Assembly (NCBI GenBank): GCA_043808285.1
Contig: JAZDFA010000012.1
Coordinates: 312 to 64,311 of the forward strand
DNA: 64,000 nt
Origin: an archaeon
Lineage (GTDB): Archaea > Nanobdellota > Nanobdellia > Pacearchaeales > DTIR01
Reading direction: 5' to 3'
Part shown: in pieces, positions 27,192-50,045 of the stretch
Layout: every line of letters begins with the position of its first letter
Numbering within the stretch: the stretch's first letter is position 1
Program-made: the position numbers and the translations under genes
The notes under the pieces: generated by a model
Databases searched by the model: none
Told to the model about the DNA's origin: nothing
The model's input: only the letters and a program-made list of their open reading frames with translations

Positions 27192-27728
27192 TCAGATATC
27201 AATTGTCTTATCAGCAAACATTTCAAGGTCTGCCCTTAATATCTTGATATCTGCTTCTGGAATAGAGTTTCTCTTTAACACTATAAACACCTTTTTTGTA
27301 TCCTGCTGCTCAGAAACAAGGTTATGTGTAAATTTGATTATCTCAGAATTCTCCTGATATATCAGCAAGCTTGAGACAGTATCGAAGAATATTATCTTGC
27401 ATTTTTCTTTTGCGAGGACTTCTTTTAAGGCATAATTTACACTTGCTAGGTTCACAGGAGAAGGCAGGAAGAGGCAATTTTTTTCTTTAGCATGTTCGCC
27501 ATAATAACTGCTCAACGTATCTATAAAGAAGAATCTTTTTATATCTATACCCTCTTCTTTGAAGTTATTTGCAACATCCTTATAAGGCCTGCTTAAGCAG
27601 ACAAAGCAGATTTTGCATTTGGTTTTTTTTACAAATTTTATCATATCCCTTAATTTCTTAAGATAGCCCTCCTCATCAAGAAGCACAAGGGCAAAATTAT
27701 GCTTTGTTATATCCTGAAGTAAGTTCAT
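27192..27728 (-). CDS. KaiC-fold protein lacking a P-loop (DUF835-like)
   Basis: This 178-aa protein is a paralog of 27970..28479 and 49037..49591. The shared motifs are ICFVCLSRP, FFIDT, SPVNL, IIFFDTVSSLLIYQ and DLEMFADKTIDI. There is no GxxxxGK[ST]. Confidence 0.6.
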   Translation of the reverse strand: MNLLQDITKHNFALVLLDEEGYLKKLRDMIKFVKKTKCKICFVCLSRPYKDVANNFKEEGIDIKRFFFIDTLSSYYGEHAKEKNCLFLPSPVNLASVNYALKEVLAKEKCKIIFFDTVSSLLIYQENSEIIKFTHNLVSEQQDTKKVFIVLKRNSIPEADIKILRADLEMFADKTIDI

Positions 27729-27969
27729 TGTTTCACCTTTTTTTTTTGATAGTATGCTATCAGAGTATTATGGAGCCGATTATTTAAATATTTCTAATTA
27801 TTCCTATTTTTAGCACTTTTATTAGCTATTCTGGATAAATATGCAATATTATAGGATAATCACCCCGTATCTGCTTCATAACTATAATATGCATTGTTTA
27901 GGCGTTATCAAAAAACAAAACTACAACATTTATTTAAACATGTGTTGAAATTAAGAAGCAGCAAGACTA

Positions 27970-28479
27970 TCATAACGTAATTGTATTGTCAGCAAACATT
28001 TCCAAGTCCTTGACAAGCGTTTGGGCTATGTCTTCTTTTGGGCAGGGAAAAATGCCTTTGCATGATGAGTTTCTTATCTTCCCTATGACTGACTGGGCAA
28101 ACTGTATCACAAGGATTTCTTTGTTGTATGCAAGAAGGGTTGAAAGCGAGTCGAATATGATAGCATCAACTTTCTCTTCAGCCAATAATTTCGTTATAGA
28201 CAAGCTAATTCTGAATAAATCGCTTGGCGAGGATACTGGGATGCAGTTTTTTATTTCCCCCCGGCATTGAGATATGCAGTCAACAAATGCTATTTTGTCT
28301 TCATCTATCTTGCCTTTTAAGAGAGAAGAAAGAACTGCAGGAGACCTATTCAAGCAGACATATCCTATTTTTTTGAATTTTACCTCTTTTAGAATCTTTC
28401 CGATCTCATTGGAATATTTATTGTTAGGTATCAACAATAGTGTTATCTGATTACTTTCTATTTCCTTTTTTATCTCCAT
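27970..28479 (-). CDS. KaiC-fold protein lacking a P-loop (DUF835-like), paralog
   Basis: This 169-aa protein carries IGYVCLNRSP, AFVDC, SPSDL, IIFDSLSTLLAYN and DLEMFADNTITL. Confidence 0.6.
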   Translation of the reverse strand: MEIKKEIESNQITLLLIPNNKYSNEIGKILKEVKFKKIGYVCLNRSPAVLSSLLKGKIDEDKIAFVDCISQCRGEIKNCIPVSSPSDLFRISLSITKLLAEEKVDAIIFDSLSTLLAYNKEILVIQFAQSVIGKIRNSSCKGIFPCPKEDIAQTLVKDLEMFADNTITL

Positions 28480-29275
28480 TTTTTTCTTTCTCGCTGATTT
28501 TTCGATATTTTTCCTGCATCAATGGAAGCAGCTCTTCAATTTCTATTATCCTTTGCTGGTATCTCTCTATTGATTGGGTATACCTTTCTTTAGACATCGA
28601 ATTTGTCTCGAAATAATCCTGCTGTGCTTCTTTTATAAGAGAGATTATTGTTTCTTTCTCTTTTTTAAGATTCCTTATCTTCACTTTCAGGATTATTGAT
28701 GATGCTATCCTGCCAATGAGCGACAATATTATAATTGCCGCTATAAAAGCAGGGATTAGTATATACCAGTATTTCTTGAGAATATAAATAGCTTTCTCTC
28801 TAATCTGCGTTTTTCTTATTGATTTAATAAGGAAGGGCTGGCTTTCAATCTCGTTTATCTTTTGATATATGTTTTGGATTGTGTTTTCAGCATCTTCGTA
28901 CCTGTTTTCATCCAATGCATTTTGCCCAGCAGCAATCTCTTCAGAAAATTCATCTTTTTGCAGGTATTTCGATTCTGCTATCTTCTGTTTTGTCTTGTTT
29001 ATGAAATCAGTTATCACAATTGCCCTGTTTTTTGAATCTGCTATCTGCTGTGTTAATTCAGAGACAGATTCATAATCTCCCTCTTCGAAGTAGGAATAGG
29101 CCTCATTAAGAAGGTCATTTGCATAATGGGTGGTAAGCCCTGCATTTCTCATTTCCATTACGCTTTGATTCGCTTTTTCAAGAAGAGGGAGGGCATCTTC
29201 TTTGGAAATAGCTGAAACAAGATTAGACACAATCAGAAATGAAATAACGAAAACAGCGATTAATTTGCCATTCAT
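28451..29275 (-). CDS. membrane-anchored protein: signal peptide, helical hairpins, TM, cytoplasmic SHOCT-like coiled coil
   Basis: The signal peptide is LIAVFVISFLIVSNLVSA. The helical motifs are AYSYFEEGDYESVSELTQQ and NALDENRYEDAENTIQN. The TM helix is ILIPAFIAAIIILSLIG. The tail LIKEAQQDYFETNSMSKERYTQSIERYQQRI is homologous to the tail of the 1374-aa protein. Confidence 0.7.
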   Translation of the reverse strand: MNGKLIAVFVISFLIVSNLVSAISKEDALPLLEKANQSVMEMRNAGLTTHYANDLLNEAYSYFEEGDYESVSELTQQIADSKNRAIVITDFINKTKQKIAESKYLQKDEFSEEIAAGQNALDENRYEDAENTIQNIYQKINEIESQPFLIKSIRKTQIREKAIYILKKYWYILIPAFIAAIIILSLIGRIASSIILKVKIRNLKKEKETIISLIKEAQQDYFETNSMSKERYTQSIERYQQRIIEIEELLPLMQEKYRKISEKEKNGDKKGNRK

Positions 29276-29655
29276 TTTTTTGCCATTATTATGCCTCCGG
29301 CATTGTAAAGAGTGAGTGTTATCTCGCTGTTTTTAGGAGTGATACAAAAGTTTTCAGCAGTTTCGAGGGTAGATATATGGAAAGAAGATATTTTACCGTT
29401 TTCTATGAGATAGAGAACATCATCTTTCTGCATGAAACATACCCTTTCTATGCTTTTCTCAAGAGAAACTGTGTATTTCATTTCGAATCCCTTGCTTAAT
29501 AATCTCATCTCGTCAACTTTTCTTTGCATGAATATAACAAACTCTTCAGAAGGGATAGTCCCAGCACTGTTATTTTTTGATAATAGATAATACGCAGAGA
29601 ATCCTATTGCAATCAATGTTGCAACCAATATCACAATCTTAATCTCTTTTTTCAT
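29272..29655 (-). CDS. small N-terminally anchored protein
   Basis: This 127-aa protein has the N-terminal helix IVILVATLIAIGFSAYYLL and overlaps the downstream gene by 4 nt. Confidence 0.55.
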   Translation of the reverse strand: MKKEIKIVILVATLIAIGFSAYYLLSKNNSAGTIPSEEFVIFMQRKVDEMRLLSKGFEMKYTVSLEKSIERVCFMQKDDVLYLIENGKISSFHISTLETAENFCITPKNSEITLTLYNAGGIIMAKK

Positions 29656-29662: not shown

Positions 29663-32600
29663 TCATGATTTCTTCTTGTTTTCTATCATTTTTATCTGCT
29701 TTTTCAGGTCTATAATTCTTTCGTTATACCCTTCTGATATCTTTTCATAGGCAGAATAGGGAATCTCCTTCCTGTCATAATAACTTGTTTGGAGCTCTTT
29801 TAATGTTTCTTCTATCCTGCAGGACTCTTCTTTAAGCGCTTTCAAATTGCCCTTGTTCTTTATCTGCGAAATAATCTTCGTCCTTGTCTTTAGAGTCTCT
29901 ATTTCTATTGCAGCCATATCCTCCCGATACTTATTTATTGTCTTGTTATAAAGTGCCTCCCCGATTATTCTTTTTTCAAAATACGCTTCCTGTGCCTGCT
30001 TCATCAATTCCAAGATTTTTTCTTTCTTTCTTTTAAACAGCACAATTCTTCTTTTAGACAAAATGATTAATGAGGACTTAGTAATTACTGCAAGCAACAC
30101 AAATACCATGAAAAGCCCTGCTATTGAATACTGCCAATATTTAATTGCAAGATTAAACAGGTACATCATGTCGACAGGTTCACTCTTCTCTATCTCACTT
30201 ACAAGAAGGGCCTGATTTGCCATCTTTAATGCCTCATTATAATCTCCCATGCCGAAAGAATCTATTGCCAATCCTAGAATTTTTATTGTCTGGGAAACAT
30301 CAGCACCGCTAATAATAGCATTTTCTATTCTTTTTCTGCTTTCATTTATCAAATCAGCAGCTAAAACAGCTTTTTCCTTGTCTTCGATAACCTGTTCTGA
30401 AAGTTGGTAAGCTTCCTTGAATCTTCCATCATTAAAAGCTCGGTCTGCCTTGTCAATTATGCTGCTTAAGTAGAATGTGCTATATCCTCTTTCTTGCAAG
30501 GAACTAATGGATTTTTTTGCATCTTTCAATTTGGAAAGGGATTCGTTCCTGTCGAATTCATTTATTGTAAGCAGGAATGTTTTGCTTCTTGTTATTGTTG
30601 AATTGCCGCTTTGGGCATCAACAGAGAAGTTAAGCGTGTATTTCTGATACTGAGAGTATATCGGAGCTTCAATGAGAATAGTGAAATATGTGCTTTCATT
30701 ATATTCCAATCTCACTATTTTATTTGGAGAAATTTTAAAATAATCTTTTTTGTAACCTATCAACTGGGCAGTTATATTTCCTAAACTATTCGTTTTCTCA
30801 AGGGATGTTATTTTTGCCTTTATTGTGACATTCTTCCCACTTATAACCTCATTATCTGAGGAGATAGTTAATAATAATGTGTCAGAGATTATAATTGTTG
30901 TTCCTCCACCGCCCCCTCCTCCCCCTCCAGTACTCCCGCTTGTGCCACCAGAAGGGGTTGATGGGGGATTACTTACCGTAGTAGTTTTCGTGTCAGAATC
31001 AGAAGCTCCCTCACTGCAGTTTACATTAACGCTTATTGATTGGGTGCCGGTAGAAGCAGTGCTTCCTATATCTACTGAAACAGAGTGAGTTGTCAGACCC
31101 CCCACACTAAGATTGCCTATGCTTTCACTGAGATGTCTTCCTGTCCATCCAGAAGGAATTGTCCAGCTAATATTAACATTAGTGGCGGTGGCATTTCCAA
31201 GATTATAAATTGTAGCAGTCATATTGCTTAAATGGTCTCCGATGGTAACAGTTGAATCGTAAACAGTTATCAACGCATAAAGATGTGGGCCGGAAAGATA
31301 GGTTGAGAGGGTTGTATTAGAAAACCTAAATCTGGGGGAGGCAGTATCATTTGTAGAATTCACAAGAACTTTTATAGCATATTCTGAGGCAGTCAGAGGG
31401 CAGGTAGCATTTACTTCCAATACCTTAATTTGTTTTGCACTAAGCGAGAAAGAACTACTTTCATTGAACCATATTAAAGGGGTGGTGCCATAAGAGCTTA
31501 ACTGGAATTCCAAGGCATAATCTCCAGTATTATTTATTGTAAGATTAAAAAGAGTAATATTTGTTTCTATTACTCCACCGATTGCATCTGTTGTTGCGGG
31601 GGAGAGAATCCAGGAATAATCGTAGTAAACAGACACATTTATTGCATTGCTGCTATTAGCATTATTTGACCAATCTTTTGTCAGGATTTTGAAACTCCAA
31701 TTTCCTTCGCTGTTAGGGGTTATATTCTCGATAAAAATATTAAGAGAGGAATTTATCATGCTTTGATTAGTCCACGAGGATTCTGTTGAATTCTTATACT
31801 GAAGTGTTGCATTTGCAACACCTCCAAAATCAGTGATATTCACAGTAATAGACAAGAGAATATTTGGGTCTATTACATCAGCATTACTGGGAGTATAAGA
31901 AACAGACTCTATAATCGGGGAGAATGTGTCATTAACTGTAAAGTTGATCGCTGAGGTGTAATTCTGGTTATTCAATGAGTCGTTTAGATATATCCTAAAT
32001 GAGATGTTTCCTGCTCTGGAGGGGGAGAAGGTATAATTGTAAAGATTGCTTCCCTCATAATTCATAGTATGGTTAGCAGAATCATATTCCACAGATACAC
32101 TAGAAACATAACTTCCTTGGTCAGTTACAGTAACTTTAATTGTCTGATTATTCCCCACCTCTATACTTGATGAATAAGTAATATTGCTGTAGGCTGGCGC
32201 AATGTTATCCAAGCTGAAAGATATTGAAGAAACTTCAAGATGACCCAAGGAATTAGCGGCATATACTGTAATATTGTTTAAGCTGTTTATTGATATCCTA
32301 TCCCTGTATCTGTAAGAGTCATAAATCCTGAAAAGAAAATCCCTTGAACTATTAATGCTTGATTCTCCGAAAGGATATATTCCATTGTCGTTTGTTTCCC
32401 ATTCGTAATGATTTGATGCAGAACTGCTTCCATTCAGGAAAATCCAGTATTTTGTATTTGCCTGAATCCTTACAGTTGCATTCAAGGTTATATTCACCCA
32501 TGTGAAGCCCGCAGTATCTATGCTGCTATTACTGAAGTTGCCTATGCCTATTACTGAATTTAGAGGTGTAGAATTTCCAATCATTATTTGAACCGTTGCA

Positions 32601-33787
32601 TTCTGGGAACCTGTTCCGGCCATTCTCAGCCGAATAGAGATATTTGATATGTCCATTGTTTCCTGGGGAGTAAATGACTGGGAGATATTGAGGTAGTTCT
32701 CATTAGATTCGTTAAGCCCTGAATCGCTGGAATCAAGAGAGATATTCAATACATTCGAGAGAGTGGTATTCCCAAGATAATTAAGGTTGTAGGAAACAAG
32801 ATTGATTGTCGAGTTTGCATCATTGGAGATTATGGTGAGATTTAAATCAATGAGAGTAGCATTGAACAAGCTGCCATTTGAAGGGTTCACAAATGTTATT
32901 GTGATATTTGGAAGAATATTAACTGTCCTTTTTGTAGTGATATTCTGATTGCCGTAGGTGTCATTGACAATCAGATAGTAGCTGTATTGCCCGGCAGACA
33001 GCCCGTATTTTGTTATATTGGTATAATTGCCGATATAGTAATAAGTTTCATTAGCCCCGTTCCAATTCAGAGTTATAGTATCTGGATGAGATTCTACATG
33101 AGAAACATTTATCAGGAATGTCCTGGATGTCTGGTTGCTGTTATTAGCAGGAGTGGGAGAGATTATGTCAACTAATGGATTTGTAACATCCGGAGACTCT
33201 GCCTGAACAAGAAAAGTTACATCATCTGTATCAGAATAAATTTCATGACCATTATAACCGCATGTTTGGTTTGAGGCAGCAGTATATGCTATAGCCCCTC
33301 TTATTGAATGATTTCCTGCTAGGTTATCTAGAGTTATGTTTATACTTTTATTGACCCATGATGCAGTATTGCATGTAGCCCCATATATTACTTTCCAGAG
33401 ATTTGGATTTGATGAGCAGTCTTCTGTGCTGTTGCAATAAACTATATTCATCATGTCATATGCATCATTGTCACAATTATAGCTGACAATTATCTGAACT
33501 GTATCTCCCTTAACAAAAATGCTCCTGTTAAGTGAGGTGATAAATATGTCATGAACCCATTCCCAAACAACCTCACTCCCATCAGAGCAGGAATCAATGG
33601 TGTTCCATCCAGGTTCGGCAGGGGCGGTATTTCTTATGCCATCTGAAGTAACTCCCCGACAATTTGTTCCACAGGAGCACGGGGAAGAAGTGCAGAAATT
33701 TCCAGTAGTTGCATAAACAGAATTAGAAAAAAATAGGAGGAGGAGTATAGCTCCCAAGACATAACACCATTGTTTTATCTTTATCAT
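29663..33787 (-). CDS. giant sequon-rich surface protein (1374 aa) with poly-Gly hinge, Ig-like domain, helical hairpins, TM and cytoplasmic coiled coil
   Basis: The signal peptide is LGAILLLLFFSNSVYA. The protein has dense N-x-S/T sequons, Ig-like repeats (D.F.P.I....Y.P...) and a CARDB-like LTINNTGDYALEF segment. The hinge is GGTSGSTGGGGGGGGGTT (~30900-30965). Helical motifs are RAFNDGRFKEAYQLSEQ and SFGMGDYNEALKMANQA. The TM helix is IAGLFMVFVLLAVI. The tail carries two SHOCT-like motifs. Confidence 0.9.
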   Translation of the reverse strand: MIKIKQWCYVLGAILLLLFFSNSVYATTGNFCTSSPCSCGTNCRGVTSDGIRNTAPAEPGWNTIDSCSDGSEVVWEWVHDIFITSLNRSIFVKGDTVQIIVSYNCDNDAYDMMNIVYCNSTEDCSSNPNLWKVIYGATCNTASWVNKSINITLDNLAGNHSIRGAIAYTAASNQTCGYNGHEIYSDTDDVTFLVQAESPDVTNPLVDIISPTPANNSNQTSRTFLINVSHVESHPDTITLNWNGANETYYYIGNYTNITKYGLSAGQYSYYLIVNDTYGNQNITTKRTVNILPNITITFVNPSNGSLFNATLIDLNLTIISNDANSTINLVSYNLNYLGNTTLSNVLNISLDSSDSGLNESNENYLNISQSFTPQETMDISNISIRLRMAGTGSQNATVQIMIGNSTPLNSVIGIGNFSNSSIDTAGFTWVNITLNATVRIQANTKYWIFLNGSSSASNHYEWETNDNGIYPFGESSINSSRDFLFRIYDSYRYRDRISINSLNNITVYAANSLGHLEVSSISFSLDNIAPAYSNITYSSSIEVGNNQTIKVTVTDQGSYVSSVSVEYDSANHTMNYEGSNLYNYTFSPSRAGNISFRIYLNDSLNNQNYTSAINFTVNDTFSPIIESVSYTPSNADVIDPNILLSITVNITDFGGVANATLQYKNSTESSWTNQSMINSSLNIFIENITPNSEGNWSFKILTKDWSNNANSSNAINVSVYYDYSWILSPATTDAIGGVIETNITLFNLTINNTGDYALEFQLSSYGTTPLIWFNESSSFSLSAKQIKVLEVNATCPLTASEYAIKVLVNSTNDTASPRFRFSNTTLSTYLSGPHLYALITVYDSTVTIGDHLSNMTATIYNLGNATATNVNISWTIPSGWTGRHLSESIGNLSVGGLTTHSVSVDIGSTASTGTQSISVNVNCSEGASDSDTKTTTVSNPPSTPSGGTSGSTGGGGGGGGGTTIIISDTLLLTISSDNEVISGKNVTIKAKITSLEKTNSLGNITAQLIGYKKDYFKISPNKIVRLEYNESTYFTILIEAPIYSQYQKYTLNFSVDAQSGNSTITRSKTFLLTINEFDRNESLSKLKDAKKSISSLQERGYSTFYLSSIIDKADRAFNDGRFKEAYQLSEQVIEDKEKAVLAADLINESRKRIENAIISGADVSQTIKILGLAIDSFGMGDYNEALKMANQALLVSEIEKSEPVDMMYLFNLAIKYWQYSIAGLFMVFVLLAVITKSSLIILSKRRIVLFKRKKEKILELMKQAQEAYFEKRIIGEALYNKTINKYREDMAAIEIETLKTRTKIISQIKNKGNLKALKEESCRIEETLKELQTSYYDRKEIPYSAYEKISEGYNERIIDLKKQIKMIENKKKS

Positions 33788-33804: not shown

Positions 33805-34671
33805 TTAGGGTTTTGCTTTTATTTCTTCCACGAAAATATCCTCTGAAGGGTATATTTCCATGCCTTTCCCCTCTATAATATCAAGAGGCACTATCTTCTT
33901 CTTATGCTGAGCGCCTCTTAGTTTCACTATCTCCATTGCACTTGTCCTATTGCCGCCCTGAACAAGGTTATAAAAAGAGATTATAGCATCTGCCAAAAAT
34001 TCTTCAACACCTGAATTGCTGTATCTTTCTGAAGTTTGCTGAACCTCACTTATAAGGAATGAAGTAACATTCAATTTTTCAAGGACTTTAAAGAGCTGTT
34101 CTATATAGACCCTGTAACCGTCTTCTTTTCCAATGAATGCGGCAGATATAGCACTAAGAGAATCAAGAACAATTATTGAGGGGGTAAATCCTGGAGGAAT
34201 AAGCTCCTTGATGTGGTCTATTTTTATCAAAAGCTCTCCTCTTGCTTCGGCAAGAAGCCCTTCTATAGAACGGGAGATTAAGAACGGATCCATTCTTTTT
34301 ATCATAAGAGTTCCTTTTTTTTCAAGTTCATCTGGTTTGAGACCATATTTTCTCATATGTTCCTTTAATCTTTCCTCGCTTTCTTCGAATGAGAGATAGA
34401 GGCACTTTTCGTTTCTTGAAGCAAGATTATTCAAGAGATGAAGGCAGAAAGTTGTTTTTCCAGTTCCGGGACCACCGCAAACCAAGATAGAAATACCTCT
34501 TGGTATTCCTCCCTCAATCATCTGATCAAATCCGGGGATACCCAAATTGAGCTTATCAGAAACCTCCTTCACTGCTTTTTTATTTTGCTTTTTATTGTTT
34601 TTCAGAGAAACCTTTTTTGCTTTCTTCAACTTATTCATGCCTTTTTTACTAATATGCCCTCTTTTCACCAT
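33805..34671 (-). CDS. KaiC-like ATPase with a basic N-terminal extension
   Basis: GIPGFDQMIEGGIPRGISILVCGGPGTGKTTFCLHLL contains Walker A. IIVLDSLS is the Walker B-like segment. It is the first gene of the minus-strand surface module. Confidence 0.85.
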   Translation of the reverse strand: MVKRGHISKKGMNKLKKAKKVSLKNNKKQNKKAVKEVSDKLNLGIPGFDQMIEGGIPRGISILVCGGPGTGKTTFCLHLLNNLASRNEKCLYLSFEESEERLKEHMRKYGLKPDELEKKGTLMIKRMDPFLISRSIEGLLAEARGELLIKIDHIKELIPPGFTPSIIVLDSLSAISAAFIGKEDGYRVYIEQLFKVLEKLNVTSFLISEVQQTSERYSNSGVEEFLADAIISFYNLVQGGNRTSAMEIVKLRGAQHKKKIVPLDIIEGKGMEIYPSEDIFVEEIKAKP

Positions 34672-35254: not shown

Positions 35255-36130
35255 ATGGGCAAAAATTGGATTATTTTTTGCATAATTTTGATAGTTGCAA
35301 ACTCATTTGTAGGAGCAGAAATATTCATTGATTATGACCATGAGGCGATGCTGATGCCAGATTCAAGCGTAAATCTGCCTGTTTTAATAACAAATTTTGG
35401 AGGCAGCATGATGGAGGCAGAGGTAACATGCAGTTATCCTAGCAATATAACTACGAAATGCATAGATTCACTAACTCTAAATCCTTATGAGATGAAATCA
35501 ATAAATCTTGTTGCAAAATCTGGAGGAGATTTGGGAGTATTTCCGCTAGGTTTCAAAATAGGCGATTTGCTGGGAAGCATAAACATAAGGGTTAGCAACG
35601 CTCCTGTCTCTTTATTGAATATACTTAATGATTACAATTATTCCTTGTCGGAGCTAAAGAAAAGCGAGAGAACAAATGCAGAAGAAATAGAAAATGCATT
35701 ATTCTCGCTAGGTAATGCGTATTCTTTTTATTCAAATGGCAATTATTACAAGGCGAATGAATTGGCTGGGGAACTGGGATTGAAACTTGGAAATCTTTCG
35801 AAGAAAACATCTGAAGTGGAGATATCAAGAGTTAGAGGGTTAGTGGGCTTCTCAATAGCAGACACTGCAGACAATATTTATACCTCTGCAGAGCCATACT
35901 CTTATCTTATAATCCCCCTAATATTAGCAGTTTTTATTGCATTGGCAATAATTTCACATAATCTTCCTAAGGCGATAAGAAAGGAAAAATTAAGCTTTAG
36001 GCAAGGAATATCCGGAGTAAGCAAGGAGTTAATACCAGAGAGAATAGAACAGAAAACATTTAGAAATCCTTTTAGAAAATCAAAGAATAAAAAGAAATCT
36101 AACAGCATGCTAAATGAATTATTTGAATAG
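35255..36130 (+). CDS. anchored surface protein: signal peptide, Ig-like domain, helical hairpin, TM, basic tail
   Basis: An AAGGAG Shine-Dalgarno site precedes the ATG. The signal peptide is IIFCIILIVANSFVGA. The CARDB-like segment is VNLPVLITNFGGSMMEAEV. The helical motif is AYSFYSNGNYYKANELAGE and the TM helix is LIIPLILAVFIALAII. Confidence 0.75.
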   Translation: MGKNWIIFCIILIVANSFVGAEIFIDYDHEAMLMPDSSVNLPVLITNFGGSMMEAEVTCSYPSNITTKCIDSLTLNPYEMKSINLVAKSGGDLGVFPLGFKIGDLLGSINIRVSNAPVSLLNILNDYNYSLSELKKSERTNAEEIENALFSLGNAYSFYSNGNYYKANELAGELGLKLGNLSKKTSEVEISRVRGLVGFSIADTADNIYTSAEPYSYLIIPLILAVFIALAIISHNLPKAIRKEKLSFRQGISGVSKELIPERIEQKTFRNPFRKSKNKKKSNSMLNELFE

Positions 36131-36159
36131 ACTTAATAATCAAAAAAACAGAGGTGAAA

Positions 36160-40900: not shown

Positions 40901-43714
40901 GGGAATGCCAATGTTCTGCTTGAAAATTATCTTGTGTTAGGATTCTCAAGTAATCTAAGCGTTACATTCAATCCAACAATAGCTCAATTTTCAATCCTAT
41001 CCCCCGGCCAAAACAGGACAATAAATGTTTATGCAAATATAACAGCAGGAACTCCTGCGGCAGAATACAATGGAACAATAAACATAACTACATTCAATAA
41101 CGGCTCGAATCTTATCACAATGAATGTTACCATTCCTTTAAACAGGTCATGGACTCTAAGCAAAGTTCCAGCAGAATGCAGCAAGGTTACATTCGAGGAT
41201 GAAGCAACTGTATGCAATATCACCATCAACAACAGGGGAAATACAAACATAAATTTCTCAATAAATGTAACCCAAACAAACTGGAATAATGTAGTGAATG
41301 TAACTTACGCAAATGAAACCTCATTTATCCTCCCCACGCAGCAATCAAAGACAATCTCTATATGGTGGAATGTTACAGGGATAGTAAAAGCATTCTATCT
41401 TACCAACTATAGTATCATTGGTTTTGGTGGCAATCCTGCAAACAGAACAATAAATGTTTCATTGCTTCCTTATTCTGCGCCAATAATCAATGCAACAACA
41501 AATAGATCGGTAGAAAAGCAGACTGGTTCTGTGATGATAATAGCAGATGTCACAGACACCTCTGGAGCTGGGATAATTCTTGCAAGAGCAATTGTAACTA
41601 ATCCTTTGGGGGAGGAATACACCACAGATATGACGTTGACAACAATTAATGACATGATATACACTTATCAATTGGAATATCCCCAAGCCTGGGCTGAATC
41701 TGACAATTATGGATATTATAATGTCAGCATTTCTGCTACAGATGGCGTTGGGATGACGGGAGCAACAAATACCTCTTTCTATCTGCATCCAGTAATGAGT
41801 GGCGTAACAAAGAGCGGATGGAATGATTACTTCCTGGGGGAATCAGGCTCTGTGTACTGCAATGTAAGTGATATTCTCGGGGGACAACTGCTCTCCAATG
41901 TCACAATCTCAGTTTACAACTCTAAAAATTTAATGCTATCCAACGGGTCATATGTTACAGGTGTGAATGGGACATTGACAACAATTCCAACATTTAACAT
42001 TCCCTCCGATGGCTCAACTGGGAATTATACTTTATCTTGCAAGGGAGATTATACTCCTCCAGTTTCAATGAGTTCTTTGCCTAATTTTGCCTCAAATTAC
42101 AGCTTTGAGGTGCATGAAAGATATAATGTAGAATTTGAAACTGCGATAGTGTGGTATCTTTCAGAGACGATAATGACATTCTATATAATGCTTTACACAG
42201 ACAACCAGATAGAAGAGCCAGACTGGATAAATTTCACAGTTTATGACCCTGCACAGCAGGTTTATTTCCAGGACCATGACAAGGCAAATTTCGGAGTAGT
42301 GTCAAGGACGAATACTAGCATAATCTACCGTTACCAGCATACAATATCTCCCACTACAGTTGCGGGATATTACTTGGCAGACCTCTCACTGCATCAGGGA
42401 AGCAGGCAGACAAAGAAAATAAAAACATTCAGATTTTCTGAAGGCGGCCCATACGACTTGGTTATATCCAGATTGCAGTCAGAAGTAGAGAGGGGAGGAA
42501 CACAAAATTTCACGATATTGCTTGAGAACATGGGAGATGTTCCTCAAGATGTTTATTTGGATTATTGGATATCCTCGCTAGATAATTCAACAATTTATGC
42601 CTCTGTATACAACCAGCCAGTTTTTGTTGATGCTGGGGCAAACAGGAGTTTTGACAGAAGTTTGAATATATATTCTGACCAGTCAGTAGGAGATTATTAC
42701 TTGCATGCAAGAATGAGGTATTCCACAATAAAACCAATGCTTCATACCCAGCAGAGTTTTAGAGTTAAAGAAGCAACACAATCTCAACCCCCAGTAATAA
42801 CTCCTTCTGGTGGCGGCGGTGGCGGGGGAGTTGTTTATCCAAGGGCAGCAGCTACAAACAGAACAAGAATAATGAATATTTTCCCTTCTGAACTATTGAT
42901 TGAAAGGGGGGGGATAGCGTATGTAATCATGGAAGTGAAGAATATTCATTCATCAGAGATATACAAGGTTTCAAGCATGTTTGGGGGAATTCCCTTTGAC
43001 TGGTTTGATACTATTAGAGAGATAGATATGCTAGAACCCGGAGCTTCAGGATATATAATAACCAAATTTAAAATTCCTTCGGATACCCAACAGAATGTAT
43101 ATCCTAGCAAGCTCAAAGTAAGCGCGATAGGAGCAGACGATTTGGCACAAGACTATAATATAGAAGTATTTGAGTCAAAAGAGGAATTGCTAAATGCCAA
43201 GATAAAGAAAGCTAGGGAACTCTTAATTGTTCTAGAAACAAAATCAGGAGAGGTTGCACAAGAGGGAGGAGATGTAACAAATGTTTTTAGGCTATTAGAG
43301 AGGGCAAACAGCCTAGTAGAAATAAGCGAAAAATATCTTGCTGAAAAAAGATTGATAGAGACAATGCAGAGTGTTGAAGAGGCATCTAATGTTTTAGAAC
43401 AGGCGAGGTATGAATTATCAATTGCAAAACCCATCAAGTCAAGGATTGTTTCAATAATCCCTGTATGGGTATATATTATAGTGGGAGTATTTGTAATTAC
43501 CTCTTCGGTTACTGTTGTGCTGCTGCGACACTTGTTCAAGAAGAAAATAGCTGAAGTGGCAAAGATTGCAACAGACAAGATTGTTGAAAAGAATGAAGAG
43601 AGCAAGGCACCCCCAACTTCAAAGGATTTGATAGACATGATAAGGGGGCAATATGAATCAGGCCACTTGTCAAAAGAGGCTTATAATGAATTAAGAAAGA
43701 GGTATTTGGCTTAG
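37901..43714 (+). CDS. giant sequon-rich surface protein (~1938 aa) with DUF2341-like N-terminus, CARDB/Ig arrays, poly-Gly hinge, TM and SHOCT-like tail
   Basis: I prefer the ATG at 37901, right after the upstream TAA; the track ORF opens at 37853. The signal peptide is ALLLILVATIFFLSINLASA. TGWWDAKWQYRIGVEI matches the W..W.YR DUF2341 start. CARDB-like segments include LSNIGNSTAYN, TIYSIGNANISL, INNRGNTNINF and LENMGDVPQDV. The hinge GGGGGGG is at 42809-42829. The TM helix is IIPVWVYIIVGVFVITSSVTVVLL and the tail is MIRGQYESGHLSKEAYNELRKRYLA. Confidence 0.9.
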   Translation: MKNLVVEEKRKALLLILVATIFFLSINLASATGWWDAKWQYRIGVEINSMAYSRTDWPIEIELNFTSLLSNFSGYFDRNSTRLEECNSSWDDLAEIRSQFDEGDNFNETTNAIGTFVFLMNGTTEGNNSRFYYIYFGTTDLRKSNITYYSNFSYAGTNEEEFNVNLTIGSKGLRFYGDTRRGENSSGLYKVQDNIGNNLFNIPPSNENTIEYIQYTNGTSNFTFDLRNSTIFRHAGPIRVVIEQIGNETLWNDYGTISEGRMTKKYTFYAENQWIKIETNFTNNAAYTINRSSTPSGAVVINILAAGLYSDLTYGNSSNPGSWWWYPNPLPVSRHIGVIQINSSSNFFSSNRSELGRGGIELPPTSINTGESVWMRAAFHFNSPVDIGGSPSDIQIEDLRNRLTIAENVTLFPLERWEARAETSVDYTIYNRGENALITINVSYDSSGVVSKLNSSFITSFGDNYTIVLYDDGTHGDATSGDKNFTNYFNISSTENLGRWNVTSYVYDSTGFFLNKSYSFLNVTEVYDITTVIGNPVGLTERQVNVSIHVKNYRKDTFVMNASLNCSFLGTLLNINPWNGNGTYEFNFTAPDYFGLFILNCSVNKSGNQGSDIDYFLTESPNTNLNITFEYVIPGWSADNVTLEGNESFELKVNLSNIGNSTAYNSNVTFALPLGWSANETIYFFGNISVSNSTTRKVLLTVGNGTAPSIYLVNATVNWSNLADVSRTTNSSFNVTVNANPLLNVSEELILAITPPGQITPVGNFTIYSIGNANISLITYNITSVGWNNGVNITFSPQSISDFAIRNSSKVQISVAVPLNHTGGFFNGTVNINSSTGGFDNLTLRIMIPLTNMSIIASPENVTITNMRWFEYRNFSISVNATNTESATAYNVNISVQLPAYWTSESALNTSSCGDMGINDVCNATFSILAKKSLAGNHTFNVTVRWTNPGVGVASNTTIVGVTANENPEFLVSNSSVDSANRTAEHGTQSLVGNFTLKSIGNANVLLENYLVLGFSSNLSVTFNPTIAQFSILSPGQNRTINVYANITAGTPAAEYNGTINITTFNNGSNLITMNVTIPLNRSWTLSKVPAECSKVTFEDEATVCNITINNRGNTNINFSINVTQTNWNNVVNVTYANETSFILPTQQSKTISIWWNVTGIVKAFYLTNYSIIGFGGNPANRTINVSLLPYSAPIINATTNRSVEKQTGSVMIIADVTDTSGAGIILARAIVTNPLGEEYTTDMTLTTINDMIYTYQLEYPQAWAESDNYGYYNVSISATDGVGMTGATNTSFYLHPVMSGVTKSGWNDYFLGESGSVYCNVSDILGGQLLSNVTISVYNSKNLMLSNGSYVTGVNGTLTTIPTFNIPSDGSTGNYTLSCKGDYTPPVSMSSLPNFASNYSFEVHERYNVEFETAIVWYLSETIMTFYIMLYTDNQIEEPDWINFTVYDPAQQVYFQDHDKANFGVVSRTNTSIIYRYQHTISPTTVAGYYLADLSLHQGSRQTKKIKTFRFSEGGPYDLVISRLQSEVERGGTQNFTILLENMGDVPQDVYLDYWISSLDNSTIYASVYNQPVFVDAGANRSFDRSLNIYSDQSVGDYYLHARMRYSTIKPMLHTQQSFRVKEATQSQPPVITPSGGGGGGGVVYPRAAATNRTRIMNIFPSELLIERGGIAYVIMEVKNIHSSEIYKVSSMFGGIPFDWFDTIREIDMLEPGASGYIITKFKIPSDTQQNVYPSKLKVSAIGADDLAQDYNIEVFESKEELLNAKIKKARELLIVLETKSGEVAQEGGDVTNVFRLLERANSLVEISEKYLAEKRLIETMQSVEEASNVLEQARYELSIAKPIKSRIVSIIPVWVYIIVGVFVITSSVTVVLLRHLFKKKIAEVAKIATDKIVEKNEESKAPPTSKDLIDMIRGQYESGHLSKEAYNELRKRYLA

Positions 43715-45397: not shown

Positions 45398-48300
45398 ATG
45401 GACAAAAGAGGTAAATCATTATTGGCAGTTGCAGGAATTCTGGCAATTATCTTAGTAATTGGATTATATTTTGTTTTTGCTGCAAATGTTGAACTTGCAT
45501 TAGTCAGCCCTGGTGGGACGATAAATGGAAGCGCGCAAATAACATTTAATGTAACAATAAATAATACAGAATTTAATGCTACTGGCGGGCCTTCTGTAAA
45601 TATAACGCATGTAAATATAACTATTGATGGAACATTTATTCTTAATATCCTGACAAACGGCAGTGATGTTTTAGAGCCAGGGCTTGCTACAGGACCTACA
45701 TTCTCAAATACTACAAACGGCACGTTATCTGTTTTAGAATGGAAGAATGCAACCGATGGATTGATACAGAATGCAACAGTCCCTCTGCCATTTTTCCAGA
45801 CAAGATATTTCTGGATTAATATTACCCCCACTGCTGAGGGGATGTATCCATTTGTTATTGATACACTTGATTCAAATGGCATGCCTAGCCCGACAGCCGC
45901 CATTTATACTATAAGTGTTAATGACCCCAATGAAAAACCTGCAGTAAATATTGTAGCAGGGCCCCCATATGGCTTAATTTACAACACTACAAATGCAAGC
46001 TTTAATCTGGACATAAATTTCAGTTGCAATGCGACTGATGGTTTCGGGCTTAATCAAATAGCACTTTTCCTGACTCAGCAAGATGGACCTTGGATAGTAA
46101 CCCAAACAAATGTTACCGGAACTTATAATCAAACAAATTTCACAAAGAGGATGTCATTTCCTGGAAATTTCTCTTGGTATTGCCAAGCTTTGGGCAACCA
46201 AGGGCATGATAATGCAACCCTTTCAAGAGCATTGAGAATAAACATGTTTTATATTTCAGGAAGAGTAATAAAATCAGACTTGACTAACGCATCTGGGGCA
46301 AATGTAAGCATTTACGAAGAAACTATGCAGATGAATGGACCTCCCATATCAACTCTGATAAATCAGACAATTGCAGATTCAACAGGATATTTCACATTAA
46401 TAGTGCCTAATAGTTCAAGAGGAAGCATGGAACCAGGACCACCAGGAGCTAATTACAAACTAAAGTTCAGATTAGAAAATGCACAGGGATTAGTAATAGA
46501 AGTAGGACCATCATTGCCTCAGATGCCAAGAGAACCATTTGTATTCAGCATGAATGGGGGAAATATTTACCTGCAGAAGGCAGTAACATTGCAGTTATAT
46601 GCAAATAATGTAAATGCAACAGGACAAGGAGCAAGACAGCTTTTTGGTTATGAAGTAATTGATAATTCCTTAGGATATCCTATGGAGAGCAATGTCCAGT
46701 CAAATGTTTCAACTGTAAATGTTACAGTTCCAATCGGAAGGAGTTATACTGTAATGTTTGCAAGAAGCCCTGAATTTTTTAATGAGAGTGAGGAATGCTG
46801 GGATCAAGAGAATGGAAATATGGGATGGTTAATGAATGATACACATTGCCCTACTCCTCCAATAAACATAAATCTTAATTGGTCATGCATTAATGCATCT
46901 GCTAACGGAGTTTATGGGGCGGGATGCAATACAACTGAAGCAAATTTCTCCCAATATTTAGTAAAAATCAATAAGAGCCTTATTTACACGCCTCTATTTT
47001 TAGAGGGATGCATAAATATTGCAGGGAATATAACTGATGTTAATCTTACTGATATAAAGACAAAGATGATACCATGGACTGGGTTTATCCCTTCTATGAC
47101 TGGTGAAATAACAGATTTTAATCCAGACGAGTCCAAATATTATACTAAAGGCAGAGGAGAACCCGGAGGGAATTATTCTGGCTGCACCGTAGGGAATTAT
47201 AGTTTACAAGTGGTTGGCGCTTCTACAGGAATGCAGTTCATGATGGAAGCATATGCGGAGAGTTCAACAGGAGCCGCAGGAAACAGAGAATATTATGCAG
47301 CATTCAAGAATCTTACATTTACTACTTTAGACCAAGAGTATAACTTTACACTTGTTAAATTGCTCGGAACATACGCGCCTGCAGATGATATTTCCACAAA
47401 GAGAATAAGCGTGAATATAACTGATGAAAATGGGACAGCCCCAAGAGACATGTTTGTTGAAGTTACGGTAAAGAATAATGCATCTGAGTCATTCCATTAC
47501 ATGATAGGAACTATAGAAAACGGGATATTCAATATTACATTATTGAATAACACCCAAAAAGCAGAAGTAAAGGTATACAGCAGCCAATATGCCCCCAAAG
47601 AGCAGAAGATTAACTTGGGTGCAGCGATGACAAATGTAACACTCTATTCATTCAAGCCCCAAAGGATTGAGAAAGGGGGGATTAATAACAGCAAGATGTC
47701 TGGGAATGAGTTAATAATGAGATTCATGAGCAATAGTGCAGCATGCAACGTTTATACTCCTGCTGCATCATGCAAGATTGGAGATGACAAGAGCGCTAAT
47801 TTTGACCCTATGCAAGCAATGATGGCTGGGAAGGCAAACTTGTGGATGAAAACCTCTTCAAATGTAACATTATATTTTATCAATGTAGACATGATGGCTT
47901 CAGGACCTCCTGATGCGATGATAAGCGATGATGTTTCAAGAGCAAGAGGGGGAGCATCTTCTTCTACAGGATTAGAACAAGCATGGAAGTTTGGTTCTTC
48001 AGCCCCAGATGTATATGACTATGTAATGATTGGAATTCCTTATAATACCAGCATTAATGAGACAACAACTGGGGGAAGCGGCAACTGGACTTATTCAATC
48101 AAGATGTCTAATCTATATGATAATGAATGGAATGTTGTATGGAACGCGACACTTAATGGAAGCGTACAACTGCCCTCAGATTACTCCGATTTTAATTCCT
48201 CATGGTTTACTTCTGGAATGAACTGTTCAACATCATCAACTCTCGGAACTCAGCAATGCTATATGAACATGTCAGACATAGGAGGTCATGCAGGATATTT

Positions 48301-48991
48301 TTGGATTACTATTCCTCACTTTTCAAGCACTGAAAGCACGATAACTGGAGGAGTAACAAGCCTTCCATCACAAGATGCTGGCAGCACGCCAGGCTCAACC
48401 AGCGGCAGCGGGGGAATAAACACTGTAATCTATGATATGGGAGATTATGCTTTCGCAAAAACAACAACAAGAGACATGGATGTTGGAGACTATGTAAAAT
48501 TCACTTTGGCAGGAAAAACAAATCATACAATAAAACTTTCAGGAGTGACTTCAACAAGAATTTCAGTCCAGATAAAGACAATTAACATGATTGTGACAAA
48601 GACTGTTGACGTAAACAAATCAATACAGGTGGATGTGAACAATGACGGAATTGCAGACATAGAAATAATCGCAAAGAGCACGCATACCTCCGCTTCATTA
48701 TCTTCCGCAGTATTGGAGATAAGATCATTATCTCTTGCTTCTGGGTCTGATATAACAACCCCACAGAATGCAACAGAAACAACAACCCCTGCAGCACAGA
48801 CTGGCAATGAGAATGCAACGGGACAAACAGGCGGACAAGAAATAGTTGCGCAGAAAACTGCCACTAAGATGTCTGCATTGCAAATAATCTTGATAGTAAT
48901 AGTGATAATAATTGCTATTGTCGCTATAACTCTAATCTCAAAAGCAACAAAGAAAAAAGTAATACCCCAAGTAATAATAAAGAAGAAATAA
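45398..48991 (+). CDS. large sequon-rich surface protein (1197 aa) with an N-terminal signal/anchor and a C-terminal TM anchor
   Basis: The N-terminal helix is LLAVAGILAIILVIGLYFVFA. N-x-S/T sequons are dense. A Ser/Thr/Gly/Pro linker (TPGSTSGSGG, TTPQNATETTTPAAQTG) is present. The C-terminal helix is ALQIILIVIVIIIAIVAITLI, followed by KKK. Confidence 0.85.
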   Translation: MDKRGKSLLAVAGILAIILVIGLYFVFAANVELALVSPGGTINGSAQITFNVTINNTEFNATGGPSVNITHVNITIDGTFILNILTNGSDVLEPGLATGPTFSNTTNGTLSVLEWKNATDGLIQNATVPLPFFQTRYFWINITPTAEGMYPFVIDTLDSNGMPSPTAAIYTISVNDPNEKPAVNIVAGPPYGLIYNTTNASFNLDINFSCNATDGFGLNQIALFLTQQDGPWIVTQTNVTGTYNQTNFTKRMSFPGNFSWYCQALGNQGHDNATLSRALRINMFYISGRVIKSDLTNASGANVSIYEETMQMNGPPISTLINQTIADSTGYFTLIVPNSSRGSMEPGPPGANYKLKFRLENAQGLVIEVGPSLPQMPREPFVFSMNGGNIYLQKAVTLQLYANNVNATGQGARQLFGYEVIDNSLGYPMESNVQSNVSTVNVTVPIGRSYTVMFARSPEFFNESEECWDQENGNMGWLMNDTHCPTPPININLNWSCINASANGVYGAGCNTTEANFSQYLVKINKSLIYTPLFLEGCINIAGNITDVNLTDIKTKMIPWTGFIPSMTGEITDFNPDESKYYTKGRGEPGGNYSGCTVGNYSLQVVGASTGMQFMMEAYAESSTGAAGNREYYAAFKNLTFTTLDQEYNFTLVKLLGTYAPADDISTKRISVNITDENGTAPRDMFVEVTVKNNASESFHYMIGTIENGIFNITLLNNTQKAEVKVYSSQYAPKEQKINLGAAMTNVTLYSFKPQRIEKGGINNSKMSGNELIMRFMSNSAACNVYTPAASCKIGDDKSANFDPMQAMMAGKANLWMKTSSNVTLYFINVDMMASGPPDAMISDDVSRARGGASSSTGLEQAWKFGSSAPDVYDYVMIGIPYNTSINETTTGGSGNWTYSIKMSNLYDNEWNVVWNATLNGSVQLPSDYSDFNSSWFTSGMNCSTSSTLGTQQCYMNMSDIGGHAGYFWITIPHFSSTESTITGGVTSLPSQDAGSTPGSTSGSGGINTVIYDMGDYAFAKTTTRDMDVGDYVKFTLAGKTNHTIKLSGVTSTRISVQIKTINMIVTKTVDVNKSIQVDVNNDGIADIEIIAKSTHTSASLSSAVLEIRSLSLASGSDITTPQNATETTTPAAQTGNENATGQTGGQEIVAQKTATKMSALQIILIVIVIIIAIVAITLISKATKKKVIPQVIIKKK

Positions 48992-49036
48992 CAAAAGAAT
49001 TTTAAATAACATTATCTGATTCTTATATAAATAAAG

Positions 49037-49591
49037 ATGGTGAAAAAGCAAAAAAAAGATGATCTAGAAACCTTGCAGTCATTAAAAGATTATGTGGCAT
49101 TGGCTACAGTAAATGCTGAAAAATACCAGAAGATGAATATAAAGATAATAAAGAGTTTTACAGACAAGAAGATACCTGGTGTTTATGTAACTCTTAGCAA
49201 GCCGGTTGTTACAGTAAAGAAACTATTGGAGGAGGCTGGGGTTGATACGAGGATTGTAATATTCATAGACGCAATAACAAAGACAATTGATGGGACTGAG
49301 AAGAAGGATAACTGCCTTTTTATTGGAACTCCTGAAAATCTCAGTGATATAAGCATTGCAATGGACCAAGCAGTAACTGCATTGCCAGCACAGAAATTCA
49401 TATTTTTTGATTCTTTAAGCGTGTTGCTAGTTTACAACCAGCCTGCGCTGGTTGCAAAGTTCATACACCTGATTGCTGGAAAGATGCATATATGGAAAGT
49501 AAAGGGGATAATTATTTCATTACGTAGAAAGGAAGACGAAGAACTTATAAAGGAACTCTTCCAATTCTGTGATATAAAAATAGATTTATAA
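49037..49591 (+). CDS. KaiC-fold protein lacking a P-loop (DUF835-like), third paralog
   Basis: This 184-aa protein carries PGVYVTLSKP, IFIDA, TPENL, FIFFDSLSVLLVYN and a C-terminal FCDIKIDL. It has no Walker A. Confidence 0.6.
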   Translation: MVKKQKKDDLETLQSLKDYVALATVNAEKYQKMNIKIIKSFTDKKIPGVYVTLSKPVVTVKKLLEEAGVDTRIVIFIDAITKTIDGTEKKDNCLFIGTPENLSDISIAMDQAVTALPAQKFIFFDSLSVLLVYNQPALVAKFIHLIAGKMHIWKVKGIIISLRRKEDEELIKELFQFCDIKIDL

Positions 49592-49604
49592 AAAGAGGAA
49601 AAAG

Positions 49605-50045
49605 ATGAAGATTGCGGAGATTGTGTGGGTAATAACAATCGCAATTGGCATAGGCTCAATATTCGGAATTTCTTCATTATTCCCTAAATCCCAGTTCGAG
49701 ATAGGAATTAATTCAATAATAACTTCACTGGCAATACTTGCATTGGTATGGATACATATTGCAAGGATAAGCCTTAGTCCTGCTTCAAATTTGAGGCATC
49801 TTGCAGTTTACATATTCTTATGCCTTATATTCATGTTCTTGTTTTCTTCATGGAATCTTATAACGACAATATTCGATTTTAAGGATTACTGGGGATACAT
49901 ATTCATTGCATTTGCTTTTATGTTCTTGATAATGGCTTCTTACAAGCTGATGAGAATAGGAACAGAATTTGGATTTTCTGCCCAGGCAAAAGGGATAACC
50001 AAGCTAATTAAGGCAGAAAAGAAAATCAAACAAAAGAAGAAGTGA
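49605..50045 (+). CDS. 4-TM membrane protein with a basic tail
   Basis: This 146-aa protein has four hydrophobic helices and the tail KAEKKIKQKKK. Confidence 0.6.
   Translation: MKIAEIVWVITIAIGIGSIFGISSLFPKSQFEIGINSIITSLAILALVWIHIARISLSPASNLRHLAVYIFLCLIFMFLFSSWNLITTIFDFKDYWGYIFIAFAFMFLIMASYKLMRIGTEFGFSAQAKGITKLIKAEKKIKQKKK

Follow-up and report, generated by a model that had tools for sequence, protein, structure and literature searches.

The way in which DPANN archaea find and keep hold of partner cells is poorly understood, and no mechanism has been assigned to their giant surface proteins. Are these proteins linked to the KaiC-like ATPases whose genes lie next to theirs? The question is raised by a 64,000-nucleotide stretch of archaeal DNA (GenBank assembly GCA_043808285.1, contig JAZDFA010000012.1, positions 312 to 64,311), called the window below. 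An earlier reading of its sequence, the original prediction, had seen three modules, A, B and C, as repeats of one system pairing giant anchored proteins with KaiC-fold ATPases. This unity did not survive closer analysis: Module B has no KaiC-fold gene, and the small genes of Module C are those of a pilus cluster. The best reading of the region is of two distinct conserved KaiC-centred clusters, the first being Module A, with non-conserved giant-protein genes in between.

Gene by gene the original prediction was accurate, and its fault was to over-unify the modules. All its open reading frames (ORFs) were found again at the same positions, and within the 64 kb it had rightly counted seven KaiC-fold genes, a HerA-like domain and a T2SSE (PilB-like) ATPase. 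The seven comprise four P-loop KaiC ATPases and three truncated proteins without Walker A, named iKaiC (inactivated KaiC) after the usage of Galperin et al. (2018, PMC5847659). The giants share an N-terminal signal or anchor helix, about 5 N-glycosylation sequons per 100 amino acids (aa) and one C-proximal transmembrane (TM) helix. Their cytoplasmic tails measure 131 aa in giant1374 (Module A), 74 aa in giant1953 (Module B), 16 aa in giant1197 (Module C) and approximately 375 aa, including a HerA/DUF87 P-loop domain, in giant4378. The GC content is about 36%, with a composition uniform throughout, and no tRNA gene was found in the 64-kb window; a mobile-element or tRNA-linked island was therefore set aside. 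Matches to the window proteins came from metagenome-assembled genomes (MAGs) labelled “archaeon”, Woesearchaeota or Nanoarchaeota, and the DNA is that of a tiny, probably partner-dependent, Woesearchaeota-like DPANN archaeon.

In the window, the genes of Module A follow one another with spacings that range from a 29-nt overlap to 17-nt gaps (Table 1). Their conservation was examined around ten KaiC288 orthologues (L085 to L094, 52–67% identical), taken from the longest contigs of ten different assemblies labelled Woesearchaeota/Nanoarchaeota, “Euryarchaeota SM23-78” and Aenigmarchaeota, by comparing the window proteins with the ORFs of these contigs using phmmer. All ten contexts had a gene of the giant1374 family at 1.5 kb or less from the KaiC288 orthologue (E 1e-68 to 1e-282), two of these giants being cut by contig ends. 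In the Aenigmarchaeota context (L094), the match spans giant1374 residues 596–1340, anchor included. The next gene after the giant was an anchor274 homologue of 403–524 aa in 8 of the 8 loci reaching far enough (E 5e-6 to 1e-27), and in 7 of 8 the anchor gene is succeeded by between one and three iKaiC genes resembling iKaiC169 and iKaiC178; the iKaiC178 orthologue of L085 matched at E=6e-52. As a control, we used pilus-type loci from a scan for iKaiC184, the iKaiC of Module C, in one genome per GTDB species (80 loci, compared with the window proteins in the same way). In the 27 that were fully flanked, the 1.5 kb around iKaiC184 never contained an ORF as long as 1000 aa (10/10 versus 0/27, Fisher's exact p ~3e-9). 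Flanking genes differ among the ten contexts while the core stays adjacent and keeps its order, and giants with CARDB or Big_13 domains are also present upstream in six loci.

Judged by gene order, Module A is a conserved operon in which KaiC, giant and anchor are followed by one to three iKaiC genes, and a functional link between the four is very likely. This defines a conserved four-gene core with a specific, mutable cytoplasmic motif. The link between surface proteins and KaiC that had been proposed for the whole region is thus real for Module A, where it recurs in all 10 related genomes examined, and for that module only. Conserved synteny of KaiC-fold and giant genes, the original prediction's own test, is clear for Module A. 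It was absent for Module C, as none of 80 species had a homologue of giant or anchor there, and Module B has no KaiC-fold gene to be syntenic with.

The Pfam KaiC model PF06745 recognises KaiC288 at 8e-50, and the protein has kept Walker A (GGPGTGKT) as well as FEE and KLRG. In its family, Walker A is present in 102 of 120 members and K[LMIV]RG in 116 of 120. By these motifs, KaiC288 is catalytically competent. Relatives at 50–75% identity form at least 120 orthologue clusters in DPANN MAGs among the matches listed; a metagenome scan with exact 8-mer patterns of one KaiC288 sequence returned just one relative, 29% identical. The partner giant1374 carries 72 sequons, a TM at residues 1225–1243 and two Q-x2-Y-[FY] motifs in its tail. 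The giant is single-copy and predicted to be heavily glycosylated, and has a well conserved N-terminal half; its family alignment contains a conserved Cys-rich N-terminal domain and Ig/NEW3 domains.

The anchor274 of the window is shorter than its 403–524-aa orthologues, as the N-terminal 130–250 aa of helical repeats are missing. The position upstream of it is occupied by h127, an unrelated protein of 127 aa with no match in Pfam or NCBIfam and no phmmer match in L085–L093. The short anchor274 and h127 may have arisen by a rearrangement in this lineage, or when one gene was split.

The three iKaiC proteins (iKaiC178, iKaiC169 and iKaiC184) are paralogues, approximately 30% identical, and can be aligned with the KaiC core. 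A Walker-B-like FDS/FDT is still present in them; missing are Walker A, the catalytic EE, and the C-terminal third with the Arg-finger region. Walker A was found in 0 of 120 members of the iKaiC184 family, and in 0 of 10 Module-A-type orthologues. The Pfam DUF7504 threshold is passed by iKaiC169 and iKaiC184; in Pfam, iKaiC184 scores 28.4 bits for a cut-off of 26.6. For iKaiC178 there are only sub-threshold matches, to DUF835 and FlaH. A sequence-profile search of the PDB with the iKaiC alignment gave nothing significant (PH0284 at E=0.29), and evidence for the fold was therefore taken from structure prediction by AlphaFold2 (AF2) and Foldseek. The iKaiC184 model (27-sequence alignment, mean predicted confidence pLDDT 89.8) had PH0284 (2dr3) as best PDB match, at E=8e-7 and TM-score 0.72, and also matched KaiC, Sso2452 and FlaH. 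The original assignment of a KaiC fold to the P-loop-less proteins is upheld. From the missing residues, all three are inactivated KaiC proteins, catalytically incompetent. A word-based homologue search with iKaiC169 gave two non-self matches, both on contigs shorter than 1 kb and hence without context.

Giant and anchor of Module A share a cassette. By BLASTP, anchor274 is homologous to the C-terminal 300 aa of giant1374, the match covering residues 1070–1316 (E=1.6e-18). In the anchor family alignment, a signal peptide is followed by an ectodomain of repeated helical units, a single TM and a cytoplasmic segment. In the anchor tail Q218, Y221 and Y232 are invariant; at the same motif, the giant tail has the invariant residues Q1266, F1270, Y1280 and Y1336. 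When all annotated window proteins and all ORFs of at least 150 aa in L085–L093 were scanned, the motif Q..[YF][FY]..[KRNQ].{3,7}[YF] was present in giant and anchor tails only, in one or two copies each. As modelled by AF2 (pLDDT 79.6), anchor274 consists of helices only; a long one crosses the membrane and leads to a hairpin on the cytoplasmic side, where the motif lies. Identity of the motif with SHOCT was rejected, as neither SHOCT nor any other meaningful Pfam match appeared at E up to 5. When the cassette was searched by HMMER against 1.84 billion representatives, 1379 clusters (at 50% identity) matched at E<=1e-3, and 480 at <=1e-10. Lengths of these proteins are bimodal: 260–520 aa when the cassette stands alone, versus 1250–1600 aa, and up to approximately 4000 aa, when it is C-terminal. 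Given the many clusters and the bimodal lengths, the cassette is a widespread and unannotated membrane anchor of archaeal surface proteins. The family, with at least 1379 clusters, could be used to find such proteins in archaeal MAGs.

Two-component genes are found beside the operon. In the window, the stand-alone receiver RR122 is convergent with iKaiC178. Orthologues of RR122 lie beside iKaiC in L085, L089, L090 and L093 (E 2e-38 to 1e-54), accompanied there by histidine kinases or PAS proteins. A dCache kinase is present downstream of the operon in L092, and a Ser/Thr kinase in L091. In L087 and L088, iKaiC is followed by h100-KaiC232-V4R, then by a FeeM, methyltransferase or radical-SAM gene. 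The KaiC232/V4R operon is thus contiguous with Module A in these two relatives; in the window, two-component genes intervene. Since the order in L087 and L088 matches that of the window at 14–18.7 kb, the window has the same arrangement, with two-component genes (18902–26745) inserted. Fusions of receiver (REC) and DUF835, REC-iKaiC as well as iKaiC-REC, occur in Methanomicrobia and Thermoplasmata (PMC5847659), so that the adjacent RR122 and iKaiC genes look like the split form of a known response-regulator architecture.

The second cluster is organised around iKaiC184, whose orthologues form more than 120 clusters at 56–89% identity. The gene for TM146, a 4-TM protein, is directly downstream of iKaiC184 in 78 of the 79 loci reaching far enough. 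Of the 27 loci flanked by 8 kb or more on each side, the tandem KaiC pair was found in 23, pilin-like genes in 21, T2SSE/T2SSF in 17, and any of these in 25. The usual order is KaiC-KaiC (-), iKaiC-4TM (+), T2SSF-T2SSF-T2SSE-p297-p291-p150-p155-p563-pilin (-), the tandem KaiC pair being mostly divergent beside iKaiC184 in relatives. Window positions 49037–60840 are a permutation of this order, and the pilus gene order of the window is seen among L001–L083. Homologues of giant1374, giant1953, giant1197, anchor274 and anchor291 are absent from all 80 iKaiC184 loci. This makes giant1197, with its 16-aa tail, an unconserved neighbour; its match to the Module A giant is marginal (E=0.007). By synteny, the small genes of Module C belong to the pilus cluster, and giant1197 merely abuts it. 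The iKaiC184/TM146 pair is a second pairing of an iKaiC gene with a membrane-protein gene, independent of Module A. Both clusters contain a membrane protein, a dead KaiC-fold protein encoded beside it, and one or more active KaiC ATPases.

The pilus locus qualifies as archaeal type IV by its T2SSE (7e-34), two T2SSF genes and pilin-like proteins. The Class_IIIsignal match of pilin130 is just below threshold (22.0 bits for 23.7), and in five further proteins of the locus the N-terminus forms a hydrophobic helix. A prepilin peptidase was not found in it. The p297 gene, directly upstream of T2SSE and present in approximately 40 of the 80 pilus loci, encodes a protein with a Lys-rich N-terminus, 4 TM and no family assignment. 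It is a candidate unrecognised component of the pilus machinery, possibly a divergent prepilin peptidase. Makarova, Koonin and Albers (2016, PMC4858521) had already reported that KaiC ATPases recurrently adjoin such loci in archaea. A second iKaiC is present in the pilus cluster of ten loci (L008, L017, L023, L024, L027, L030, L034, L060, L069 and L072), placed behind the 4-TM gene in some and behind the two tandem KaiC genes in others. The iKaiC copy number is therefore variable, and Module-A-type iKaiC proteins may derive from such pilus-cluster duplicates.

What could a KaiC ATPase do next to a surface protein? In general terms, a membrane partner, an iKaiC as adaptor and an active KaiC would form triads that link surface structures to two-component signalling, an idea to which we give an even chance. 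For Module A, giant and anchor would assemble through the shared helical ectodomain/TM cassette into a stalked surface complex, and their cytoplasmic hairpins, with the invariant Q-x2-[YF]-[FY]...Y motif, would recruit iKaiC. As an adaptor or pseudo-subunit, iKaiC would join or modulate a ring of KaiC288, and the ATP or phosphorylation state of this ring would connect the surface complex to the two-component pathway, with the receiver acting on iKaiC. Signalling might run outside-in or inside-out. The invariant, family-specific motif and the neighbouring receiver and kinase genes suggest such a reading of the tails. Direct docking of giant and anchor tails on KaiC or iKaiC is a possibility that we put forward tentatively. 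In its most elaborate form, the proposal is of a DPANN coupling device: a mixed KaiC/iKaiC ring would grip the hairpins, receiver-fed changes in ATP or phosphorylation would switch or report surface adhesion or contact, integrin-like bidirectional signalling would serve partner attachment, and the iKaiC-adaptor principle would be reused at the pilus. We consider this full scheme somewhat unlikely. A link between KaiC and surface proteins, if true, would extend the notion of KaiC as an archaeal signalling hub to direct coupling with cell-surface structures.

Several observations weigh against tails being read by KaiC proteins. The sample consists of ten contexts only, and in one that is complete (L090), no recognisable iKaiC follows the anchor; an unrelated 141-aa gene stands there, and the suggestion that it is a degenerate iKaiC was not supported. 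Foldseek matched the anchor274 model to generic helical proteins of the PDB only (E >=0.7), and in Pfam, at E up to 5, the tail motif corresponds to no known interaction domain. The motif is absent from giant1197 and from the giants of Module B, and the idea therefore covers only some of the giants in the window. In addition, a gene with a winged helix-turn-helix (wHTH)-like product lies between KaiC and giant in four relatives, L085–L088, which fits a KaiC that acts on transcription and not on tails. The encoded proteins are 66–86 aa long and 55–83% identical, with the pattern …PLSTRELA…AWHSIQ..C..LQ..GK..GFRVGNMNLW. This gene is the starting point of the main rival, a GvpD-like regulatory role, by which KaiC288 would only regulate expression of the surface operon together with the wHTH protein, the tails serving for oligomerisation or anchoring and never contacting KaiC or iKaiC. 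Besides the conservation of the wHTH-like gene, it can claim the sub-family-level Pfam match of KaiC288 to the GvpD P-loop domain (3.5e-8) and the listing of KaiC ATPases as predicted regulators of surface structures (Makarova et al. 2016, PMC4858521). However, the operon is kept without a wHTH gene in the window, where tblastn found no counterpart, and in six other loci, and a regulator explains neither the inactivated KaiC copies encoded directly after the membrane anchor nor the invariance of the cytoplasmic motif. We regard pure regulation as unlikely.

Alternatively, giant1374 and the anchor could be canopy and stalk of an S-layer-like coat, with KaiC and iKaiC as factors for assembly or quality control instead of signalling. 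The size pair (approximately 1300–1700 and 450 aa) and the gene order recall slaAB; the anchor has an ectodomain made of helices only and a C-terminal TM, and the giant is single-copy, conserved in its N-terminal half and heavily glycosylated. Yet no sequence or structure likeness to known S-layer proteins was found in Pfam, in NCBIfam or between the anchor model and the PDB, and the giant has its own TM and tail, superfluous for a canopy subunit. The receiver and kinase neighbours indicate signalling, and no role of KaiC-family proteins as assembly chaperones is known. Taken as a whole this explanation is improbable, although its canopy-and-stalk part is compatible with either signalling or regulation. 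Adjacency could, lastly, be a coincidence, if DPANN surface-protein and KaiC genes were simply concentrated in a variable island. This does apply to giant1197 and iKaiC184, as no giant or anchor homologue was present in 80 loci, and Module B, without a KaiC-fold gene of its own, fits as well. It is refuted for Module A by an adjacency of the core kept in 10/10 contexts, across differently labelled lineages and with differing flanks, and the absence of any functional link there is very improbable. A coupling of surface proteins to KaiC signalling remains the preferred hypothesis for Module A.

Table 1. Positions of the features discussed; coordinates are those of the window unless a relative is named.
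Feature	Position	Strand	Description
giant4378	38..13174	+	5' end cut by window edge; TM 3985-4003, then cytoplasmic HerA/DUF87 domain (DUF87 2.2e-8, HerA_C)
79-aa and 93-aa ORFs	13378-13888	-	overlapping small ORFs
Radical-SAM/B12-binding enzyme, SAM methyltransferase, FeeM-type N-acyl amino acid synthase	14275-17071		gene group beside KaiC232-V4R
V4R220, KaiC232, h100	17073..18739	-	second KaiC module; Pfam V4R and KaiC
SSF-kinase	22090-24966	+	histidine kinase with transporter-type sensor
RR122	26377..26745	+	stand-alone CheY-like receiver; Response_reg 6e-29; last gene of PAS/HAMP/SSF-histidine-kinase cluster 18902-26745
iKaiC178	27192..27728	-	second inactivated KaiC paralogue; ~32% identical to iKaiC169 and iKaiC184
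iKaiC169	27970..28479	-	truncated KaiC fold without Walker A; DUF7504 6.6e-6, 27.1 bits for cut-off 27
anchor274	28451..29275	-	signal peptide, all-helical ectodomain, one TM, cytoplasmic helical hairpin
h127	29272..29655	-	small N-terminally anchored protein; TM residues 7-25
giant1374	29663..33787	-	secreted, N-glycosylated Ig/NEW3 surface protein; helical ectodomain, TM, 131-aa tail; NPCBM_assoc 1.5e-11
KaiC288	33805..34671	-	single-domain P-loop KaiC-like ATPase, Lys-rich ~40-aa N-terminal extension; first operon gene; Pfam PF06745
Module B (anchor291, cc579, giant1953)	35255..43714	+	divergent from Module A; without KaiC-fold gene
wHTH-nucleotidyltransferase and 121-aa protein	43811-44735	+	Pfam Polbeta/NTP_transf_2, then protein of HEPN-like size
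giant1197	45398..48991	+	surface protein, C-terminal TM, 16-aa tail, no anchor cassette
iKaiC184 and TM146 (4-TM protein)	49037..50045	+	fixed gene pair of pilus/KaiC-pair cluster
Type IV pilus-like locus	50415..58971	- (h169 +)	two T2SSF, T2SSE, p297, p291, p150, p155, p563, pilin130, h169
p297	53692-54585	-	Lys-rich N-terminus, 4 TM
KaiC241 and KaiC229	59424..60840	-	tandem active KaiC pair; Pfam KaiC ~1e-54
wHTH-like gene	L085:9562-9822	-	between KaiC288 orthologue and giant
wHTH-like gene	L086:11291-11542		between KaiC288 orthologue and giant
wHTH-like gene	L087:10871-11071		between KaiC288 orthologue and giant
wHTH-like gene	L088:11088-11291		between KaiC288 orthologue and giant

Among the remaining genes, those of Module B encode anchor291 (signal peptide, beta domain, helices and TM), cc579 (a cytoplasmic SMC-like coiled coil) and giant1953, which has NEW3 domains and a TM. 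The anchor family profile gave no significant match to anchor291 or to the giant1953 C-terminus, and Module B was therefore not counted as a carrier of the anchor cassette. The P-loop of giant4378, GTTGSGKT, is HerA/FtsK-like. Orthologues of this giant are found near the KaiC288 operon in L085 (12839-17095) and L090 (1-3510), with E values of approximately 1e-123 to 1e-125. In these two relatives, cc579 homologues adjoin the HerA-fused giant; in the window the two are 23 kb apart, cc579 being in Module B. As the HerA-fused giant, a cc579-like protein and the Module A operon recur in relatives, the window begins with 35 kb that form a surface and signalling island conserved in DPANN archaea.

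The HerA-fused giant is separated from the radical-SAM gene by two small ORFs that overlap, one of 79 aa and one of 93 aa; judged by size and arrangement, they are a candidate toxin-antitoxin pair. Modules B and C are separated by a wHTH-nucleotidyltransferase gene followed by one for a 121-aa protein, HEPN-like in size and without Pfam match. In PMC6393860, an MNT-HEPN family is named among those characteristic of DPANN, and its conservation is called odd. Within the two-component cluster, one histidine kinase has as its sensor a full sodium:solute symporter (SSF) domain, fused to HisKA-HATPase. Orthologues of its kinase domain adjoin the KaiC/giant operon in several relatives, with dCache or HAMP sensors there. 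Next to KaiC232-V4R stand the radical-SAM/B12-binding enzyme, the S-adenosylmethionine (SAM) methyltransferase and the FeeM-type N-acyl amino acid synthase, which has a weak autoinducer-synthase match. FeeM is beside KaiC232-V4R in both L087 (19166-20760) and L088 (20107-20795), together with the radical-SAM gene in L087 and the methyltransferase gene in L088. This group may represent a small-molecule or lipid signal pathway tied to the KaiC island.

How do the two clusters compare with known systems? SlaA and SlaB are the canopy and stalk pair of the Sulfolobales S-layer. Shared with Module A is the layout, in which the large outer protein is glycosylated and the next one, of approximately 450 aa, has a coiled-coil stalk and C-terminal TM. 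In contrast, no likeness of sequence or fold was detected here, both proteins have a TM and a conserved tail, and they are co-encoded with KaiC and iKaiC; neither Pfam nor NCBIfam gave an S-layer family match, and the anchor model had no significant match in the PDB. GvpD is a KaiC-like regulator inside haloarchaeal gas-vesicle gene clusters, and in the same way Module A has a KaiC-family ATPase within an operon of structural genes for a cell-associated structure. It differs by the absence of a GvpE-like activator, by structural genes that encode transmembrane surface proteins, and by the extra inactivated KaiC copies. The KaiABC clock is a more distant comparison: all KaiC proteins of the window are single-domain (229–288 aa), the NCBIfam circadian KaiC score is 136 bits for a cut-off of 408, and the window proteins scanned had no Pfam match to KaiA or KaiB.

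ArlH, a KaiC-like protein, binds the archaellum ATPase ArlI (PMC4858521), and is therefore a precedent for docking of a KaiC-fold protein on a membrane-associated machine. The pilus-linked cluster resembles ArlH-type loci by its KaiC-fold gene beside a T2SSE ATPase, TadC/T2SSF and class III signal-peptide pilins, and FlaH matches the iKaiC184 model. However, ArlH binds ATP whereas iKaiC184 has no Walker A, and iKaiC184 is paired with a 4-TM protein and tandem active KaiC proteins. Genes for archaellin, ArlF/G and ArlCDE/X were not found in the window. KaiC288 scores 38.6 bits for the 215 of NCBIfam ArlH, and iKaiC178 16.5 for the 194 of FlaH.

KaiC-like ATPases were reportedly proposed as archaeal signalling hubs by Makarova, Galperin and Koonin in 2017. 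Hubs with inactivated KaiC domains such as DUF835, MEDS and DUF7504 have been described in archaea (Galperin et al. 2018, PMC5847659). The literature searched, in which the 2017 KaiC survey (Makarova et al.) was not covered, contained no description of the Module A operon or of such a KaiC partner, no co-mention of KaiC and Woesearchaeota, and no mention of DUF7504 or of the fixed iKaiC/4-TM pair. KaiC hubs, iKaiC domains, V4R, two-component genes and KaiC beside pili are already known kinds. As in such hubs, single-domain KaiC proteins are encoded here with V4R, PAS, histidine-kinase and receiver genes, dead KaiC-fold domains are found as partner or output modules, and REC-iKaiC fusions have their parallel in the adjacent RR122 and iKaiC. 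The partner is different: a giant single-pass surface glycoprotein and a helical anchor, both with a conserved cytoplasmic motif. This operonic union of KaiC and iKaiC with a giant surface glycoprotein and a motif-bearing anchor family appears to be new, and so does the fixed iKaiC/4-TM pair at the Woesearchaeal pilus locus.

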